DNA of 64,000 nt from assembly GCA_023247275.1 (NCBI GenBank), contig JAHFGT010000005.1, positions 124-64,123 on the forward strand, written 5' to 3'. Below, in pieces: positions 37,487-49,200 of the stretch. The translations under genes were made by a program, and so were the position numbers. Positions within the stretch are counted from its first letter, which is position 1. Each line of letters starts with the position of its first letter. The notes beneath the pieces are model-generated. The model ran no database searches. It was given only the letters and a program-made list of their open reading frames with translations, and was not told where the DNA came from. The DNA comes from Candidatus Omnitrophota bacterium. GTDB taxonomy: Bacteria > Omnitrophota > Gorgyraeia > Aquiviventales > Aquiviventaceae.

Positions 37487-39199
37487 TTAGGTCCGTCCCA
37501 TCAGGATCACGCTCTCCACTTCTTCAAGGCTGGTCAGACCCTGCTGGACCTTTCGAAGGCCACCCTGCTCTAACGTGACCAGGCCGTTACGAATCGCTGC
37601 GTCCTTGATGAGGTGGGCGGCCGCGCCTTTGGTGACCAGTTCACGCACCTGTTCATTGATCTCCATCACCTCGTACGCACCCACCCGGCCGCGATATCCA
37701 GTTCCACTGCACGGTTCACACCCCTTGGCTCGGTAGATCGGTCCGGTGCCAAGGGCAAGCCGCTCGCGCAGCGCGGGTGACGGCTCATAGGATTCCCGAC
37801 ACTGGTCGCACAATCGCCGCACCAACCGCTGCGCCACGATCAGCGAGATCGTGGACGAGACCAGGTACGGGGCCACGCCAATATCCAGCAGCCGGGTGAC
37901 CGCTGACGGCGCGTCATTGGTGTGCACGGTGCTAAACACCATATGGCCGGTCAAGGCGGCTTGCACGCAGATTTCAGCGGTCTCCAGATCTCGGACTTCC
38001 CCTACCATGATAACGTCTGGATCTTGGCGAAGGAACGAACGTAAGCCGGCGGCAAAAGTCAGCCCGATGGACGGTTTGATCTGGACTTGGTTCACACCAT
38101 CCAGTCGGTATTCGACCGGGTCCTCGATCGTCAGGATATTTTTCTTTGGCGTCTTGATGGCGCTGAGTGCGGCATACAGCGTCGTGGTCTTGCCAGAGCC
38201 GGTCGGACCAGTCAACAACAACAGGCCGTACGGATCATGGATCACCGACTGGAACAATCCGAGTTCCCGCTCGTCAAATCCCAGCTGTTGCAGATCCAGC
38301 AGCTCTGGGATTTTCTTCAAAATTCTGACGACCACTTTTTCCCCATAGATGGTCGGGATGACCGACACCCGAAAATCGATCGACAGGCCTTCCATGCCCA
38401 TCATGAACCCGCCATCCTGGGGCAGCCGTTTTTCCGCGATATCCAGTTTGCACAAAATTTTAATGCGCGAGATAATCGCCGCGTGCAGCGCCCGAGCCGG
38501 CGGGCTGATCTCGTGCAACACCCCATCAATTCGGTACCGCAGGCTCAACCGCTCACGAAATGGTTCGATGTGGATATCGCTGGCGCGTTGCTTGATCGCC
38601 TGGCGAATGATGAGATCCACCAGCCGGATCACCGGCGCTTCCTGTGCCGCCTCTTTCAGACGATCCAAGTTGAGGACTTCTTCAGTCGCAAGGTCTTCTC
38701 CATTCGACAGCTGGTAGGAATGGCCGATGGCCTCCTGGAGCATCGTGTCTTCGCCATAGAAGGTGCTAATGGCTACTTCGAGGTCGGCTTTTGTCGTGAC
38801 GACCGGATGAATATCGCATCCGGTAAGGCGACTGAGGTTATCCATCGTCAGCAGATCCAGGGGATTGACGCAGGCCACCGTGAGAGAGTTGATGGTGCGG
38901 GACAACGGTAAGACCAAATGCTGCCGGGCAAACTCTGTGGGGACAAGTTGTTCGAGGCCTTGGCCTTTGGGAGGATTCAACAGGCCGCTGGCGGCTGAGG
39001 CGTATGGCACACTCAGCTGTTTGCTAAGCGCAGCGGCGATGTCCAGCTCGCTGACCATGCCGAGCTCGACCAAAATCTCACCGATGCGTTTGGTGGTCCC
39101 ATGCTGAGACTCCAGCGCTTTGGCCAGTTGGTCGACCGAGATCAGGCCGGCCTTGACCAGAATTTCGCCGAGTTTGTCGCCAAGTTTTAGAATTGGCAT
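37487..39199 (-). CDS. pilB: Type IV pilus assembly ATPase PilB with N-terminal MshEN-type domain
   Basis: [31 protein letters not shown], and CDQC...CEPCSGTGYRGRVGAYEVM. The N-terminus has a tandem 24-residue MshEN motif. The start is set at ATG 39199; the track uses GTG 39220. Confidence 0.9.
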   Translation of the reverse strand: MPILKLGDKLGEILVKAGLISVDQLAKALESQHGTTKRIGEILVELGMVSELDIAAALSKQLSVPYASAASGLLNPPKGQGLEQLVPTEFARQHLVLPLSRTINSLTVACVNPLDLLTMDNLSRLTGCDIHPVVTTKADLEVAISTFYGEDTMLQEAIGHSYQLSNGEDLATEEVLNLDRLKEAAQEAPVIRLVDLIIRQAIKQRASDIHIEPFRERLSLRYRIDGVLHEISPPARALHAAIISRIKILCKLDIAEKRLPQDGGFMMGMEGLSIDFRVSVIPTIYGEKVVVRILKKIPELLDLQQLGFDERELGLFQSVIHDPYGLLLLTGPTGSGKTTTLYAALSAIKTPKKNILTIEDPVEYRLDGVNQVQIKPSIGLTFAAGLRSFLRQDPDVIMVGEVRDLETAEICVQAALTGHMVFSTVHTNDAPSAVTRLLDIGVAPYLVSSTISLIVAQRLVRRLCDQCRESYEPSPALRERLALGTGPIYRAKGCEPCSGTGYRGRVGAYEVMEINEQVRELVTKGAAAHLIKDAAIRNGLVTLEQGGLRKVQQGLTSLEEVESVILMGRT

Positions 39200-39248
39200 G
39201 GTCGTTACCCACCGTAACACTGCCCGTCATGCTCAAGCCGAGTACCGC

Positions 39249-43652: not shown

Positions 43653-45323
43653 TCAGCGCTGCTGGACAAGCCGATTCACAGTCTCTTCTAACGTTGCAAT
43701 CCGTTGCTGCTGAGACTGTAGCTGTATATTGAGCTGCTCGATATACCGATGCGCATACTCTAGCTCCTGCAACAGACCGGCAAAATCGTCATCAAGACTT
43801 CGTAACCTGGGTTCGGTACCCTTCTCTTGGCTCGGAGCGATCGCCGGCAAATGCTTGTGCGCCCACATTTCGGCAGCATGCTGTTCGATGCTTGGCAACT
43901 TGTAGTCTGGTTGAAAAACAAAATCTGGCAGGACGGTTCCGTTCCGCAAAATCTGACCCCACACCGACAAGTTGACCGGCACCGCAGGAGGCGGTGCGCC
44001 GATCGTCGTGTTTCCGATGATTTGTACCTTTTCTCCGAGCGCTGGATTCGCTGTCCCGATTCCGACATTGCCATTCGCATCAATGACAAATGGGGTGTCA
44101 TCGCCAGGAAGAGGCAGCAATGGGTTGAACTGATCATCGATCCGTAGCACAGGCGCAACCGCAGCAGGATCCGCTTGCATAATGTGCAATTGGGCCCAAG
44201 CCCCAACGTTATTCGGAACCCCAATCGCGACAAACCCTGTATCGCCGGTGATCTTCATGCGCAGGGGAATGGGACTAGAGCCAGTGTCTGTCGTACCAAA
44301 CAGCATATCCCCTGGATTGCCGCTCATGCCAACGATCGGCACTTGTCCAATGTACCCGCGATGATTCCAGTTGGAACGGAACATGATCCAACTTTTCCCG
44401 CCGGAATCGTTGAGATCAATGGAGGCATTACGATTGGCCCCGGTCGCGGCGCGCAGCCGCAGGCTGGCATCATAGGTGGGGCGCGCCTGGATCACCATAG
44501 TGGGGATGTCTGGCTTGGTGGGATCAAAATCATCGACGTTTAACAGCCCGATTCCGACCTGTCCGTTCTGTTCCCACACCATCCGCGGGGGCACCGCGGT
44601 GAAATCCTGGACAAGATTATCCGTGATGGCGACATCGCGACCGCCAAAGAAGGTCGTGCTGATAGTCGGGCGACCGAAGAAGGCTTGCGGTGAAGTATCG
44701 CCGAAACTGAGCTGCATCCCACTGGCCAACCAGGAGGGCGCACCCCAGGACCGGATTCGCAAAATCATCGGCTGCTGAACCCCAGAGGCCAGGTCTAAAA
44801 ACGTATTGGGATCAGGAAGTCCGGATGCCACACCAGATCCGAGCAGGAAGCCTCTAACCTTGCGAGGACTTCCTGCTGTTTCATCCATGGTCATGCCATA
44901 GTTCCCGTCAGAGGTATGCAGTTCAAAGCTCGGAAATGCTCCTGACGAGCCGCCACCCCCATACATCTGGACTGACGTACCCCACATGCCGAGGACCCGG
45001 GCATTTTCGCTGCGGCCACCGAGGTCCCGCGGCCAGACTAACCAGCCGGTACTATGGAGCGGTTGGCTGTATCGAGTGTTCCAATTGACGTTGTCCATAT
45101 AGAGGTTACCGCCGGTGATTGACATTCTCATCTCGGCACCGATATTTGGCGTGAGGGGGTCTGGGGTAGTCGGTGGAGTCCCGACCCCGACCCGTATCTG
45201 GTTATAGACGCCGCGGGGCGACGGGTAGTAGGTACTTAACGTCAGGTCTTCAGCAGCCACATAGCTGATCAGACCGATCGACACGATCATCCCGACCCCA
45301 AATGTCCATCCATGCGTCCGCAT
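43653..45323 (-). CDS. Secreted fibre-like protein of unknown family (556 aa) in the PilY1 position
   Basis: Sec-type signal (…ISYVAA|EDL), not a prepilin leader. It contains the LSTYYPSPRGVY motif, a Gly-rich beta-type body with NGNVGIGTANPALGEKVQIIG, and a C-terminal module DFVFQPDYKLPSIEQHAAEMWAHKHLPAI followed by a coiled-coil. Confidence 0.6.
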   Translation of the reverse strand: MRTHGWTFGVGMIVSIGLISYVAAEDLTLSTYYPSPRGVYNQIRVGVGTPPTTPDPLTPNIGAEMRMSITGGNLYMDNVNWNTRYSQPLHSTGWLVWPRDLGGRSENARVLGMWGTSVQMYGGGGSSGAFPSFELHTSDGNYGMTMDETAGSPRKVRGFLLGSGVASGLPDPNTFLDLASGVQQPMILRIRSWGAPSWLASGMQLSFGDTSPQAFFGRPTISTTFFGGRDVAITDNLVQDFTAVPPRMVWEQNGQVGIGLLNVDDFDPTKPDIPTMVIQARPTYDASLRLRAATGANRNASIDLNDSGGKSWIMFRSNWNHRGYIGQVPIVGMSGNPGDMLFGTTDTGSSPIPLRMKITGDTGFVAIGVPNNVGAWAQLHIMQADPAAVAPVLRIDDQFNPLLPLPGDDTPFVIDANGNVGIGTANPALGEKVQIIGNTTIGAPPPAVPVNLSVWGQILRNGTVLPDFVFQPDYKLPSIEQHAAEMWAHKHLPAIAPSQEKGTEPRLRSLDDDFAGLLQELEYAHRYIEQLNIQLQSQQQRIATLEETVNRLVQQR

Positions 45324-46406: not shown

Positions 46407-46808
46407 CTAGGGACAGCTGGTCCAGGTTCCTGATGGGGTGCGGTTGCCATCGGTTACCTTCAGCCAACTGTTATTGCACTGCCCGCCTTGCCGGGTCGCT
46501 TTGGCGGTGAACTTGGCGCACCCGGCAGTGCAGTTGACGGCAAATTGAATCGACCCGTCCGGCGGGTTTGGATCTTCCATGCTGATGTCTTTCCATGCTC
46601 CGGGCGGCACGTCCAGATACTTGCTGTTGGCAAAGAAATAGACCCGTTCCCCGGCATAGGTGGCCATCAACAGATCCTCTGCCTCGCGTCGACGGCCCAA
46701 CTCGATCGTCTTCGTGAAGTTTGGATAGGCGATCGCGGCCAGGACAGCAAGGATGACGATGGTCATCAGCACTTCGCTGAGCGTAAATCCATCCCGGGCG
46801 CGCTTCAT
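46407..46808 (-). CDS. Pilin-like protein (FimU/PilE-like, 133 aa)
   Basis: MKRARDG|FTLSEVLMTIVILAVLAAIAYPNF. The ATG 46808 overlaps the upstream stop by 1 nt (TGATG). It has four Cys in the C-terminal half. Confidence 0.65.
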   Translation of the reverse strand: MKRARDGFTLSEVLMTIVILAVLAAIAYPNFTKTIELGRRREAEDLLMATYAGERVYFFANSKYLDVPPGAWKDISMEDPNPPDGSIQFAVNCTAGCAKFTAKATRQGGQCNNSWLKVTDGNRTPSGTWTSCP

Positions 46809-47173
46809 CAGTTCAGCGTGTAGGTGACATGTACCTGAAGCTTGCGACCTTGGCATGGCGTTGCGGTGCACGGGGGGATTTCGACATCGACAAAATCGTT
46901 CGGGTCGGTGGTCGTTCCATTCCCGTTGACATCGAACACCACATCAGCGTCTCCTGCTGGATCACTCCACGTCGGGTTTTGCCAGAGCTGCTGCATGGCC
47001 CAAACCAGACCGGCCTCTGCCGCGTACCGGGCTTGGAGTCGGCGCACGTGATAGGCTGACTGGTTGATCCGGGCCATCGACATGGTGAGCGCTGCGAACG
47101 CCGCGATCGAGAACACCATCGCGGTGATAATTACCAATCCCAGCGCAATACCGCGTTCGTTGCTTGGCCGCAT
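46808..47173 (-). CDS. PilX-like minor pilin (121 aa)
   Basis: MRPSNERGIALGLVIITAMVFSIAAFAAL matches the PilX_N pattern (ERG.AL......, no Glu+5). GAGGAG SD lies 7 nt upstream. Confidence 0.6.
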   Translation of the reverse strand: MRPSNERGIALGLVIITAMVFSIAAFAALTMSMARINQSAYHVRRLQARYAAEAGLVWAMQQLWQNPTWSDPAGDADVVFDVNGNGTTTDPNDFVDVEIPPCTATPCQGRKLQVHVTYTLN

Positions 47174-47184
47174 CTGAGCTCCTC

Positions 47185-47226
47185 AAAAAATGCAACAGCC
47201 GAACTACTGTCCGGTAGCTCGGCTGT
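47185..47226 (-). terminator. Intrinsic terminator/attenuator hairpin immediately upstream of the pilX SD
   Basis: Minus-strand RNA: ACAGCCGAGCUAC-CGGACA-GUAGUUCGGCUGU (13-bp stem including one G.U), then UGCAUUUUUU. GAGGAGCUCAG-AUG follows directly. Confidence 0.6.
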
Positions 47227-47256
47227 CTCATAACGCCGGGTGTGCACTATTGTCTA

Positions 47257-47319
47257 CTAGCCCGGTCGTCTCAGGTGAGACCCGCAGCTTTGCGCCCCCG
47301 CCTCACGGCGCCCTGTCGC
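47257..47319 (-). ncRNA. Candidate GEMM-I-like (c-di-GMP-I class) riboswitch aptamer in the minor-pilin leader
   Basis: Minus-strand RNA: GCGACAGGGCGCC-GUGA-GGCGGGGGCGC-AAA-GCUGCGGGUCUC-ACCU-GAGACGACCGGGCUAG. Two adjacent hairpins are present, the first capped by a GNRA (GYRA) loop. They are joined by AAA within CGCAAAGCUGCGGGUCU. This resembles the conserved ACGCAAAGCYnCGGG core I recall for GEMM-I. It is not verified with a covariance model. Confidence 0.35.
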
Positions 47320-47438
47320 AACGCTCCTGCGACAAGGTCTGCCACCTGTCCTTCTTAAGGAAAGCGCGCACGTTTCGGTGGCAGCGGTTAACCCTTTTCG
47401 GATCCAGTAACATACATTTCTTTAATATGTACGACAAA

Positions 47439-47468
47439 AGTATATCTCCGACGACAATCAACTGTCAA
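47439..47468 (-). promoter_or_regulatory. Sigma70-type promoter of the minor-pilin operon leader
   Basis: On the minus strand: TTGACA (47468..47463), 18 nt, TATACT (47444..47439). A second TTGACG lies 9 nt upstream. This predicts a ~260-nt 5' UTR. Confidence 0.5.
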
Positions 47469-47548
47469 GCACGACGTCAAGGGTTGAGACGTTCCAGGGT
47501 CTGTACGGTAACAACGGATACGCTCTGCTCAGCAGGAGTATCAAATTC

Positions 47549-47881
47549 TTAGCGAGGATCAACGGTGTCAAGCACCCACCGCGCATAGGGAGGATGGCCG
47601 TGCGTGACCGGCAGGGCGATGATTTCAGGAACCTCATAGGGATGCAGCGAGCGGATGAGTCGGCACAGATCGGCAAATCGATTCGAGCTGGTCTTGATGA
47701 CGAGTAAGACCTCACGAGCTTGCTCAACCTGACCCTTCCACACATAGGTGGATTCTACATCTGCGTTGATCACGTTGACGCAGGCCGCGACCCGCTGCTG
47801 AACTAGCGCATGCGCCAACCGCCGAGCCACCGTGCGAGTCGGGCAGGTCACCAGCACAACCACCACTCGACCGCGCGCCAT
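47549..47881 (-). CDS. cutA: Divalent-cation tolerance protein CutA
   Basis: VVVLVTCPTRTVARRLAHALVQQRVAACVNVI...VESTYVWKGQVEQAREVLLVIKT...LHPYEVPEIIALPV. The start is set at ATG 47881. Confidence 0.85.
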   Translation of the reverse strand: MARGRVVVVLVTCPTRTVARRLAHALVQQRVAACVNVINADVESTYVWKGQVEQAREVLLVIKTSSNRFADLCRLIRSLHPYEVPEIIALPVTHGHPPYARWVLDTVDPR

Positions 47882-47886
47882 GGCTG

Positions 47887-48090
47887 TTAGGGGCGGCGCA
47901 GCGACACGTGAAGATCTGCTCCGTCTTGTCGTACGATCACATGACCCTCGCGGGCCAGCCATCCGAGACTCATCAACACCAGCGTCTGTGACCGATCAAT
48001 CGACTTGGGTAGTTGACTGAATAACGTTTCCCCATGATTATCGAGATAATGCCAGATCTCTCCGGCCACAATTCCGATCTCGGTGATCAT
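47887..48090 (-). CDS. Winged-helix protein, DUF2582-like (67 aa)
   Basis: IGIVAGEIWHYLDNHGETLFSQLPKSIDRSQTLVLMSLGWLAREGHV matches the DUF2582 pattern (IG..AG.IW..L...G......L........ALGWLARE). Confidence 0.6.
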   Translation of the reverse strand: MITEIGIVAGEIWHYLDNHGETLFSQLPKSIDRSQTLVLMSLGWLAREGHVIVRQDGADLHVSLRRP

Positions 48091-48108
48091 GCGTCCTCCT
48101 GTTCCTTG

Positions 48109-48498
48109 CTATTCTGACAGCGTCGCGATATGCACCTGCTCATGCCCGGTTTCCCGACAGACATCCCACAGCTCGATCAATTTGTCCACGTACGCATGGC
48201 GATCCGCTCGGATCAGGATCGGTTTCCCATCCGCGGCGTGCTCCAAGCGATCTCGAACCTGCTTGAGCGAGACGACCTGCTCATCCCAGTATACGACATG
48301 GTCCTTCGTCAGTGTCAGCATGATGTTGGACGGTGAGATCTGCTCGCTGCTGGTCGCTTTCGGCAGCGAAATCTTGATTCCTGGATGCAGCACAAAGCTG
48401 GACGTCAGCATGAAGTAGATCAGCTGCTGAAACACCACGTCGATCATCGGCGCGATATCGACCGAGACCGGTTCGCTGATTCGACGTCGCAGTCGCAT
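48109..48498 (-). CDS. ExbD/TolR biopolymer transport protein
   Basis: VDIAPMIDVVFQQLIYFMLTSSF is the N-terminal TM signature. A periplasmic domain with LIRADRHAYVDKLIELWDVC follows. Confidence 0.8.
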   Translation of the reverse strand: MRLRRRISEPVSVDIAPMIDVVFQQLIYFMLTSSFVLHPGIKISLPKATSSEQISPSNIMLTLTKDHVVYWDEQVVSLKQVRDRLEHAADGKPILIRADRHAYVDKLIELWDVCRETGHEQVHIATLSE

Positions 48499-48501
48499 CG
48501 T

Positions 48502-49200
48502 TCAGTGAGGAGCTCCGGGCCGACGCCAGCCAGCAACGATGGTCGCGGCTTTCTCCATATGAAACTGCGTTTCGCTCACCCGCCCGACAAAATAGTTGTA
48601 CACCAGGATCGTCGGGATGGCGACGATCAACCCTGCGACGGTGGTGATCAAGGCTTCCCACACGCCCCCGGCCAAATCGCCTGGGCTGACTGGGCTCCCG
48701 CCACCGGATTTCATTTGAATCACTTGGAAGGCACGGACCAGTCCGGTCACTGTTCCCAGCAGCCCCAACAGAGTGGCCACTTGCGCCAAGGTGGAGAGCC
48801 AGCGCAGGTGTTGTTCAATAGCTGGCAACTCTTGGTAGGCGGCATCTTCCATGGCTTCGTCGATCTCTTTTGCGGTCGCTTCATGTGACGCCAGCCCGGC
48901 GAGGACGACCCGGGCTACCGGACCTCGCCACGTCTCGCACAACGCCTTAGCCTCTGGCCATCGGCGAGAATCCACAGCGGCGCGCAGCTGCTCAAAGAAT
49001 CGGTCCATGTTGCGCCCATGATTCAGGCTGAAAAAGAACAGCAGCCGTTCCATGGTCAGTGTGAGCGAGAAGATCGAGCACATGACAATCGGAATCATCA
49101 CCGGTCCGCCACGGTGGATGATGTCGACAAAAGCGTACAGCAGCCAGCCGAGCCCGGCGGCGGTGATCAGAAACACGACGAGTTGGATCGCGCGACTCAT
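48502..49200 (-). CDS. MotA/TolQ/ExbB proton-channel protein
   Basis: Three TM helices, with C-terminal signature LSTLAQVATLLGLLGTVTGLVRAF......GGVWEALITTVAGLIVAIP. Confidence 0.8.
   Translation of the reverse strand: MSRAIQLVVFLITAAGLGWLLYAFVDIIHRGGPVMIPIVMCSIFSLTLTMERLLFFFSLNHGRNMDRFFEQLRAAVDSRRWPEAKALCETWRGPVARVVLAGLASHEATAKEIDEAMEDAAYQELPAIEQHLRWLSTLAQVATLLGLLGTVTGLVRAFQVIQMKSGGGSPVSPGDLAGGVWEALITTVAGLIVAIPTILVYNYFVGRVSETQFHMEKAATIVAGWRRPGAPH

Follow-up and report, generated by a model that had tools for sequence, protein, structure and literature searches.

A probable expanded c-di-GMP-I riboswitch with a duplicated 3' strand upstream of a pilus-like operon in an Omnitrophota genome

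The window analysed here is a stretch of 64,000 nucleotides (nt) from a Candidatus Omnitrophota bacterium (contig JAHFGT010000005.1 of assembly GCA_023247275.1), and our subject is the leader transcribed from its minus strand ahead of a gene for a PilX-like protein. The leader fills a 375-nt gap between a CutA1 gene (47549..47962; Pfam E = 3.9e-36) and the pilX-like gene (46808..47173; 121 amino acids [aa]). A sequence-only reading had called this gap the longest non-coding stretch of the window, which is consistent with what we find, the two larger gaps in a crude tiling of open reading frames (ORFs) being covered by long ORFs. About 25 homologs of the pilX-like protein are 37-57% identical to it, one of them named PilX by a source, and the genes downstream form a type IV pilus / type II secretion system (T2SS)-like cluster encoding three N_methyl pseudopilins, a 556-aa protein, PilM_2, PilO, a secretin, and a T2SSE ATPase. 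We posit that the leader is probably a transcription-attenuating riboswitch of the c-di-GMP-I (GEMM-I) class, that is, one responding to cyclic di-GMP (c-di-GMP), in an expanded form. The features to which the argument refers are listed here in the order of transcription; A and B are inserted hairpins, C1 and C2 are two copies of one 3' strand, and the remaining names follow the helices (P1, P2) and junction (J1/2) of the fold.

47439..47468, minus strand: sigma-70-type promoter, with -35 box TTGACA (47468..47463), an 18-nt spacer, and -10 box TATACT (47444..47439)
47399..47409, minus strand: 5' strand of P1, UACUG (47409..47405), a GAU bulge, and CCG (47401..47399)
47386..47398, minus strand: J1/2 and the outer first arm, AAAA-GGG-UUAA-CC; MAFFT aligns GGGTTAACC with AGGCAAACC of the orthologs
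47339..47385, minus strand: inserted hairpin A, stem CUGCCACC/GGUGGCAG with an inner hairpin
47311..47337, minus strand: inserted hairpin B, 10-bp stem CCUUGUCGCA/UGCGACAGGG, present in every predicted fold
47299..47310, minus strand: hairpin C, CGCC-GUGA-GGCG, with a GNRA tetraloop at 47306..47303
47289..47298, minus strand: 3' side of the first arm and junction, GG-GGC-GC-AAA; C47294 is the C44 equivalent and A47291 the A47 equivalent
47277..47289, minus strand: shared 5' strand of the second arm (P2-5'), AGCUGCGGGUCUC, with 12/12 pairs to either C1 or C2
47246..47272, minus strand: C1, proximal decayed copy of the 3' strand, GAGACGACCGGGCUAGUAGACAAUAGU; all 12 P2 pairs kept, closing a 4-nt loop
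47233..47240, minus strand: linker segment CCCGGCGU, which pairs with ACGACCGGG of C1 (47269..47261)
47205..47229, minus strand: C2, distal intact 3' strand, GAGACAGCCGAGCUACCGGACAGUA, with the interhelical G47223, C47214 as C92 equivalent, and the P1 3' strand
47185..47227, minus strand: intrinsic terminator, 5' arm GACAGCCGAGCUAC (47227..47214), loop, 3' arm GUAGUUCGGCUGUU (47207..47194), then GCAUUUUUU (47193..47185)
47184..47179 and 47173, minus strand: Shine-Dalgarno GAGGAG and ATG, start of the pilX-like gene 46808..47173

The frame of the leader is that of an attenuator. The promoter matches 11 of 12 consensus positions, and most orthologous leaders carry an equivalent TTGAC.../TATACT pair at the same spacing, ~33 nt upstream of aptamer P1. 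None of 200 shuffles is as stable as the leader fold (z = -3.94), and the terminator stem-loop (47227..47194; 14 pairs, 7 of them G-C; -24.2 kcal/mol) runs through its U-tract into the Shine-Dalgarno and start codon. Promoter, hairpin-rich leader, and terminator had all been described where we find them, the terminator with a stem of 13 pairs instead of 14. This G+C-rich hairpin and U-tract overlap a strand of the aptamer: the 5' arm of the terminator is C2, an arrangement that recurs in 19/19 leaders examined (the window and 18 orthologs).

Membership in the GEMM-I class is carried by the orthologs. These loci (L numbers below) come from genome and metagenome collections, the named ones being Omnitrophota and Planctomycetales metagenome-assembled genomes (MAGs), and 18 of them have enough upstream sequence to be scored. 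Directly upstream of the pilX-like gene, 14/18 leaders pass the Rfam gathering threshold of the c-di-GMP-I clan, ten with RF03167 (60-77.5 bits) and four with RF01051 (43-57 bits); the ten also had lower-scoring same-clan matches above gathering, and a custom covariance model gave seven more matches in further loci. For the region 47100..47600 of the window, the best Rfam match under permissive filters is RF03167 (c-di-GMP-I-GGC), at 27.1 bits vs a gathering score of 59 and with an E value of 2.6e-4 computed for these 501 nt; the alignment covers the full model, with an insertion of ~45 nt, and takes the distal 3' strand (47229..47209). Because the region had been chosen for its GEMM-I likeness, this sub-threshold match is by itself suggestive only. 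RF01786 (c-di-GMP-II) gave no match there up to E = 10, and two further Rfam matches, DUF3800-IX on hairpin A (E = 0.19) and MIR5200 (E = 9.9), were set aside as chance.

Two covariance models built from orthologs, with the window excluded, place the element far more sharply. R1, from 11 simple orthologous aptamers, finds one significant match on both strands of the 64-kb window (47328..47246; 35.8 bits, E = 6.7e-8; next best E = 1.1), with C1 as its 3' strand, like the sequence-only reading. R2, from 14 orthologs of which three carry insertions, also finds a single match (47326..47203; 39.2 bits, E = 3.3e-9), in which it skips 47 nt to reach the distal 3' strand. From these single matches we conclude, on sequence grounds, that the leader element is real and homologous to c-di-GMP-I riboswitches. 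The fold itself, P1 and two arms round a three-way junction, is supported by covariation: in the 11 orthologous aptamers 97.8% of its pairs form and 7 have changed on both sides (0/500 shuffles as good; slid controls 32-42%), and in a spliced alignment of 18 leaders, including the window, which joins the shared 5' part (S5) to C2, 95.9% form and 10 have changed on both sides (slid controls 33-39%), with a covariation of 0.260 vs 0.112 (0/500 shuffles). The sequence-only reading had proposed a GEMM-I-like aptamer and terminator attenuating a minor-pilin operon, to be judged by a covariance-model E value below 0.01 and by conservation of the core in orthologous leaders. The ortholog gathering passes, the covariation, and R1 and R2 bear this proposal out, with RF03167 at 2.6e-4 locally and a custom model at 3e-9, and the core was found in the orthologous leaders.

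Where the aptamer begins and ends is a separate matter. The common plan of the leaders is a promoter, ~33 nt of A+U-rich sequence, ACUGGCGAAAAGGCAAACC, a GNRA hairpin, GGGGCGCAAAGCUNCGGGUCUC, a short loop, and AGACAGCCGAGCUGCCGAACCAG; the window reads UACUGGAUCCGAAAAGGGUUAACC (47409..47386), hairpin A, hairpin B, CGCC-GUGA-GGCG, and then GGGGCGCAAAGC. On this layout the aptamer spans 47409..47205 of the minus strand, about 205 nt, and the complete model with C2 has 46 pairs, all canonical. P1 consists of 8 of these, UACUG with CAGUA (47209..47205) and CCG with CGG (47213..47211), both within C2. The outer first arm pairs G47392 with C47292, U47391 with G47293, and C47387 and C47386 with G47297 and G47298; stacked on the last two (CC/GG), hairpin C restores the canonical 6-bp first arm, whose six pairs are 100% formed and 6/6 covarying across 18 leaders. 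The positions of C34 and A47 are conserved in all leaders. The helix under the GUGA loop thus regains 6 bp, and the invariant CGGGUCUC/GAGAC helix could be the receptor of the tetraloop.

The 5' register was tested by excising the insertions in silico and scoring the result against a profile of 11 orthologs (88 positions). The long 5' segment joined to C2 scored 63.5 bits (profile positions 3-85 of 88), the long segment with C1 50.7, a short 5' segment with C2 48.6, and the short segment with C1, the register of the sequence-only reading, 35.3; L008, L011, and L018 spliced likewise scored 72-77 bits. When the long 5' segment was replaced by 2000 random 26-mers from the window, scores were 49.6 +/- 1.2 bits with a maximum of 57.7; the genuine segment thus adds about 15 bits and beats 2000/2000. 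A hidden Markov model (HMM) of the 23-nt 5' segment run over the window was too short to inform, the true site being split by the GAU insertion. We therefore rejected the short register, which takes ACAGGGC as J1/2: it uses the 3' arm of the 10-bp hairpin B, which forms in all predicted folds, it leaves the first arm without its GC-AAA-CC part, it falls ~15 bits below the long register after excision, and it is the long register that fits the layout of L008, L011, L018, and L030.

These results redraw the earlier picture of the aptamer. The segment 47319..47257 reads as had been quoted, with its GUGA-capped hairpin, GCAAAGC junction, and GCUGCGGGUCUC strand, but of three strand assignments two were wrong. 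ACAGGGC, likened to the Vc2 element, is really the 3' arm of hairpin B, and P1-5' and J1/2 lie in UACUGGAUCCGAAAAGGGUUAACC; the proximal ACCGGGCUA, taken as the 3' strand, is a decayed copy, the ligand-competent strand being, on our prediction, the distal copy within the terminator. What had been a 63-nt core becomes an element of about 205 nt. A competing hairpin at the 5' edge had been offered either as an alternative conformer or as a reason to distrust the alignment; it is a genuine insertion and not an alternative junction conformer, and the distrust was justified.

That insertion, hairpins A and B in the 5' strand of the first arm, amounts to 74-75 nt and turns the arm into a four-way junction; because the GNRA hairpin stacks on CC/GG and restores the 6-bp arm, A and B would branch from it. 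Two hairpins stand at the same place, between AAACC and the 4-bp GNRA hairpin, in L008, L011, L018, and L030, the first three of which pass Rfam gathering, and the contig-truncated L035 keeps the 3' end of the insertion. In all five (L008, L011, L018, L030, and L035) the GNRA hairpin is immediately preceded by a homologous hairpin with ...GGG at its end. MAFFT could not consistently align the variable hairpins A and B across leaders. L034:566-654 and L035:1-85 precede an identical pilX-like protein (P0008), and only L035 has the hairpin insertion (GGCAAACC-UGUC... vs ...GGGGUGGCGGG-UGUC...). The pair is an indel polymorphism between near-identical strains; with the protein identical and the insertion in one member only, the insertion is thus a discrete, tolerated indel. 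Hairpin B (CCCGCC...GGCGGG) is similar in L008, L011, L018, L030, and L035; could it be a small mobile or repeat element? A further observation concerns L021:2275-2453 (identical in L022), where two hairpins sit at another site, between GGGGACGC and AAAGC, by the A47 equivalent. The second arm of L021 has been recoded (GGGCCCC / GGGGC), both copies of its 3' strand having changed in compensation, and this leader, missed by Rfam at gathering, scores 40.4 bits with R2.

The second arm encloses an insertion as well, of 47 nt, and this contains C1. Both 3'-strand copies are present in 17/17 riboswitch-bearing orthologs in which both can be anchored (18 leaders with the window). In the orthologs C1 completes the aptamer that Rfam recognises, and C2, 4 to >50 nt downstream, is the terminator 5' arm; C2 pairs with the shared 5' strand 12/12 in most leaders, slightly better than C1. 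The bulged G and the C92 equivalent stand in 35/35 anchored ortholog copies, C1 and C2 alike, and the only anchored copy without them is C1 of the window, the one leader among about 22 in which C1 has decayed. There, A47266 replaces the interhelical G, G47257 replaces the C92 equivalent, and the P1 3' strand is lost (CCG -> GUA). C1 and C2 of the window differ at 7/27 positions, of which 1/7 lies within the 12 P2-paired positions and preserves pairing, a sparing of paired positions for which a hypergeometric estimate gives p about 0.07. P1 has changed on both strands together (CUGG-CG/CG-AA-CCAG -> CUG-GAU-CCG/CGG-A-CAG), and its duplex energy is -8.7 kcal/mol with C2 vs -1.4 with C1. Lacking the C92 equivalent, the interhelical G, and P1, C1 was rejected as the ligand-binding strand and kept as a pairing-only decoy. 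The A or G before C92 was also tried as a marker of C1 vs C2 and proved inconsistent across loci.

Is C2 more than a terminator arm? In L018 a G-to-A change in the shared strand is compensated in C2 only, and in L021 two pairs with C2 have gone from U-A to C-G on both sides. Conservation extends to stretches of C2 with which the terminator could dispense (GAGAC outside the stem in seven loci, the P1-3' segment in the terminator loop in most), and in the spliced S5+C2 alignment one P1 pair has gone from G-C to U-A in four leaders. Because of these compensations, the conserved non-terminator parts, and the S5+C2 covariation, we take the pairing of C2 with the shared strand to be under selection.

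Some relatives depart from the two-copy plan. L030:1300-1480 mirrors the window: its C1 is intact (GCUACCGAACCAGU) and its C2 is cut to ACAGCCGAGCC, without the C92 equivalent or the P1 strand, and its terminator 3' arm (GGCCGGCUGU) is similar to a stretch of C1, a trait of the classical antiterminator design of OFF switches. At L017:320-443 the whole 5' half of the aptamer is absent, which leaves the promoter, C2 (GAGACAGCCGAGCUGCCGAUCCAG), the terminator arm, and the U-tract, apparently as an unregulated terminator before the operon. The orthologous operons of L009, L020, L036, L038, and L039 have no riboswitch.

With respect to the ligand, Vc2 contacts c-di-GMP through G20, A47, and C92, and a Watson-Crick C-G pair between a first-arm C and a bulged second-arm G is universal in GEMM-I (PMC4744006). 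When the 3' strand is C2, the window has all three contact residues (G20 = 47393, A47 = 47291, C92 = 47214); when it is C1, the strand first proposed, G47257 takes the C92 position. Both residues of the C44-G83 equivalent are likewise present with C2, as C47294 and G47223, which by homology would pair with each other, and C1 has A47266 instead. Since the G20, A47, C92, and C44-G83 equivalents are all there, we infer that the ligand is c-di-GMP. The junction reads GCAAAGC in the window and all orthologs, as against GCGAAGC in the RF03167 consensus, whose G at model position 37 we take to be the variant-defining change A47 to G, the 'GGC' of the name presumably standing for positions 20/47/92. 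The G20 equivalent is G in the window (G47393) and in all orthologs (AAAGGC / AAGGGC), and not the A to which, we assume, G20 is changed in the cyclic AMP-GMP (c-AMP-GMP; GEMM-Ib) variants. Riboswitches for c-AMP-GMP have a key pocket nucleotide altered (PMC9481103).

A second c-di-GMP input may lie in the same gene cluster. Its ATPase (37487..39220, minus strand) has a T2SSE + MshEN (PF05157) architecture, and the N terminus reads KLGEILVKAGLISVDQLAKALESQ-HGTTK-RIGEILVELGMVSELDIAAALSKQ, two 24-residue c-di-GMP-binding motifs with a spacer of exactly 5 residues, a fit that accepts K for R in motif I and I and M for L in motif II as conservative replacements. The two motifs and their 5-residue spacer are defined in PMC5013675, and PMC7096442 describes c-di-GMP control of MSHA pilus dynamics via an MshE-type ATPase. 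Given these motifs, the cluster may be under c-di-GMP control at both the RNA and the protein level.

How would such an aptamer govern the terminator? Constrained folding before the terminator 3' arm has emerged favours S5:C2 over S5:C1 in 15/15 leaders, by 0.3-6.0 kcal/mol and in the window by 6.0; at full length S5:C1 with the terminator wins in 12/15 leaders, and in the window by 5.5-16 kcal/mol. Minimum-free-energy (MFE) folds of the growing window transcript pass through the following states.

3' end 47259: S5:C1, 12/12 pairs
3' end 47232: C1 captured by the linker CCCGGCGU (47240..47233), the C1:linker pairing being 8/8 from this 3' end on
3' end 47216: S5:C2, 12/12 pairs
3' end 47205: P1 8/8; the full aptamer is the unconstrained MFE fold, -87.6 kcal/mol
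3' end 47199..47194: P1 and P2 (C2) replaced by the terminator

In these models the aptamer with C2 and the terminator are shown to be mutually exclusive. The proposed mechanism is that during transcription the shared 5' strand would pair first with the proximal decoy C1, that the linker would then capture C1 and free the shared strand before C2 emerges, and that C2 would pair with it to complete the aptamer. With c-di-GMP bound, C2 would be locked and transcription would read through into the pseudopilin/fibre operon (ON); with no ligand, the terminator 3' arm would strip C2 away and transcription would stop at 47190..47185. Because the sole ligand-competent fold uses C2, which is also the terminator 5' arm, ligand could only favour read-through. 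We think it rather likely that the window holds a c-di-GMP ON switch of this kind, with C1 as a transient, pairing-only placeholder.

Several points weigh against this reading. At gathering thresholds Rfam finds only a tRNA in the window, and no c-di-GMP riboswitch model passes, a shortfall that we attribute to the 74-nt and 47-nt insertions. R1 and R2 both settle on the short 5' register, since a 75-nt insertion penalises the long one, and the long register thus rests on in-silico splicing and homology and not on a direct covariance-model score. The first arm has U-G as its outer pair, and J1/2 exceeds its ortholog counterparts by one nucleotide. A four-way junction in the first arm could disturb tetraloop docking, and we found in the literature no characterised precedent for one in the first arm of GEMM-I. 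The succession of folds derives from nearest-neighbour energies, which ignore tertiary contacts and ligand, and the polymerase has only about 11 nt to cover from the finished aptamer to the finished terminator. Finally, C2 of L030 is without ligand-binding determinants, and L010, L012, L013, and L033 favour P1 with C1; these five leaders look like OFF switches. With an ON switch in the window and OFF-like orthologs, either the logic differs by lineage or one group has been misread.

What else could the leader be? Several of these points would suit a decaying relic, a former c-di-GMP-I riboswitch now blind to its ligand, in which the terminator fixes the level of read-through or S5:C2 serves as a constitutive antiterminator. 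The window scores under all Rfam gathering thresholds, both arms of its aptamer hold large insertions, its junction shows a U-G pair and a surplus nucleotide, and it is alone among about 22 leaders in its decayed C1; moreover, the riboswitch-less operons (L009, L020, L036, L038, L039) and L017, with only C2 and the terminator, indicate that loss does happen in the family. But a relic would hardly keep every ligand- and tertiary-contact position of the S5+C2 aptamer intact, change P1 on both strands and retain 8 pairs with C2, confine C1/C2 differences so largely to positions outside the P2 pairs, or possess a linker complementary to C1 and an orderly succession of folds, and the same A+B insertion occurs in L008, L011, and L018, which pass gathering; we regard decay as unlikely, if worth keeping in view. 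An OFF switch, on the logic that the orthologs may share, would have the ligand lock S5:C1 and leave C2 free for the terminator, with C2 displacing C1 and antiterminating when no ligand is bound. The orthologs lend this some substance, since their C1 is a complete strand (C92 and interhelical G present, P1 present and covarying), S5:C2 is slightly more stable than S5:C1 before the terminator in 15/15 leaders, as an antiterminator should be, and L030 keeps only the pairing part of C2. For the window it is nevertheless improbable: without the C92 equivalent, the interhelical G, and P1, S5:C1 should not bind ligand, the one ligand-competent fold excludes the terminator, and the full-length MFE fold is the terminator state in the window and 12/15 leaders, a default usual for ON and not for OFF switches.

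The same fold might instead serve another ligand, whether 3'3'-cyclic GMP-AMP (3'3'-cGAMP), a different cyclic dinucleotide, or an unknown one as proposed for RF03167. RF03167 does outscore RF01051 on the window and 10 orthologs, the expanded first arm might alter the pocket, and GEMM-I variants of altered specificity exist (PMC7266159; PMC9481103). Yet RF03167 position 37 is A in the window and every ortholog, as in canonical c-di-GMP-I, and the ten RF03167-matching orthologs also match same-clan models above gathering. The G20 equivalent is likewise G, where we presume an A for c-AMP-GMP variants, and the co-encoded MshEN ATPase points to c-di-GMP, all of which makes a different ligand quite improbable. 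A chance resemblance, in which an ordinary structured leader and terminator merely look like GEMM-I, could appeal to the sub-threshold Rfam score and to a region picked for its likeness, but it is effectively refuted already by ortholog-trained models reaching E = 7e-8 and 3e-9 over the whole window, by orthologs that pass gathering at the same genomic position, and by covariation in the fold.

Weighing these, we retain the expanded c-di-GMP-I ON switch for the window and speculate, more tentatively, about the family. It is conceivable, though we would not bet on it, that the leaders embody an undescribed dual-3'-strand design, one 5' half with two alternative, complete 3' halves, which individual lineages have resolved to ON or OFF. 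If this were true, the aptamer made with C1 would coexist with the terminator and the aptamer made with C2 would destroy it; the window would have lost the binding determinants of C1 (ON, with C1 as decoy) and L030 those of C2 (OFF), a natural inversion of regulatory logic through decay of one duplicated strand. Where both copies are intact, might the response be non-monotonic, set by the timing of ligand during transcription?

Some further observations concern the surroundings of the leader. Between the -10 box and the aptamer lies an A+U-rich segment (47410..47438, minus strand; e.g., UUUUUGGUAAAAAAUUAAGCUUUAUAUUACUGG) with equivalents in L004, L011, L017, L018, L020, L021, L029, L036, L038, and L039; it is kept even in orthologous leaders without a riboswitch, and it may be a riboswitch-independent protein-binding site or a signal of the initial transcribed region. 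Two ORFs overlap the leader (120 aa at 47190..47552, plus strand; 52 aa at 47303..47461, minus strand); since no gene is called at either on the identical public contig (L001) and the RNA structure explains the region, they are most likely spurious. Upstream (47549..49200, minus strand), the order ExbB/ExbD and then CutA1 is shared with L001, L029, L030, L036, and L039, with a DUF2582 gene between ExbB/ExbD and CutA1 in the relatives. CutA1 immediately precedes either the riboswitch or the pilX-like gene, the riboswitch being gained or lost in an otherwise fixed gene order. Downstream, after four pilin-like genes, the 556-aa protein (43653..45323, minus strand) matches no Pfam family and has an N-terminal hydrophobic segment and a coiled-coil-like C-terminal tail (…LEYAHRYIEQLNIQLQSQQQRIATLEETVNRLVQQR); it is possibly a fibre or tip component of the pilus-like system.

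What would such an element teach? Standard Rfam thresholds miss a cyclic-dinucleotide riboswitch whose length two insertions more than double, and expanded relatives of known riboswitch classes are probably under-counted in uncultured phyla. The leader would tie c-di-GMP to a type IV pilus/T2SS-like fibre operon in a poorly known lineage, the nearest loci being in Omnitrophota and Planctomycetales MAGs, and riboswitch and MshEN ATPase together make a coherent two-level prediction, at RNA and protein, for the decision to build a fibre. The duplicated 3' strand, conserved and covarying in the 17 orthologous leaders with both copies anchored, makes a small natural model for the study of how strands exchange or act as decoys and possibly of how ON and OFF logic evolves, with natural 'mutants' at hand in the window, L030, the L034/L035 pair, and L017. 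We found no description of a duplicated 3' strand for GEMM-I in the literature, and the descriptions that we did find are without a two-hairpin four-way-junction insertion, a family-wide duplicated 3' strand, or lineage-specific decay of one copy.

Set beside known systems, the leader resembles Vc2 and GEMM-I at large (RF01051, clan CL00126) in its three-helix junction, GNRA-capped first arm, GCAAAGC with the A47 equivalent, and equivalents of G20, C92, and the interhelical C-G pair, as well as in its place in a 5' leader ahead of an intrinsic terminator and an association with surface or pilus genes; it departs from the GEMM-I norm in having an aptamer of about 205 nt instead of about 90, insertions of 74 nt and 47 nt, and a sub-gathering score. 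The RF03167 consensus (AAAGGCAAACC..., CGGGUCUC..., AGACAGCCGGGCUGCCG) is nearly identical to the orthologs, which differ from it in an A instead of a G at position 37 and are canonical there, not 'GGC'. In tug-of-war riboswitches aptamer and terminator do not overlap, and a spacer of roughly 0-4 nt separates them (bioRxiv 10.64898/2026.06.17.733018). The ortholog S5:C1 aptamer and terminator are similarly non-overlapping and close together, but their spacing runs from 4 to >50 nt and is mostly >8 nt, and in the window the aptamer overlaps the terminator; tug-of-war antitermination was rejected on both counts, the excessive spacers and the overlap of strands. The closer mechanistic parallels are the pbuE adenine and ZTP/pfl ON switches, in which terminator and ligand-bound aptamer share a strand (here C2) and exclude each other, the terminator 3' arm having about 10 nt of transcription in which to invade the aptamer; unlike these, the window has an extra upstream near-copy, C1, that would pair first and then be removed by a complementary linker. 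The riboswitch of the Clostridioides difficile pilin gene is reportedly an ON switch. There too the leader of a gene or operon for type IV pili carries a cyclic-di-GMP riboswitch, but the setting is a Gram-positive pathogen, whereas here it is a class I element of an uncultured lineage placed before minor-pilin/fibre genes and not the major pilin. The C. difficile riboswitches mentioned in PMC4744006 are of class II, whose fold is unrelated to class I. A c-di-GMP-I riboswitch before pilus genes has precedent; its expanded form in the window, with a decoy copy of one of its own strands, would extend that precedent to a lineage in which fibre building may be read from c-di-GMP.

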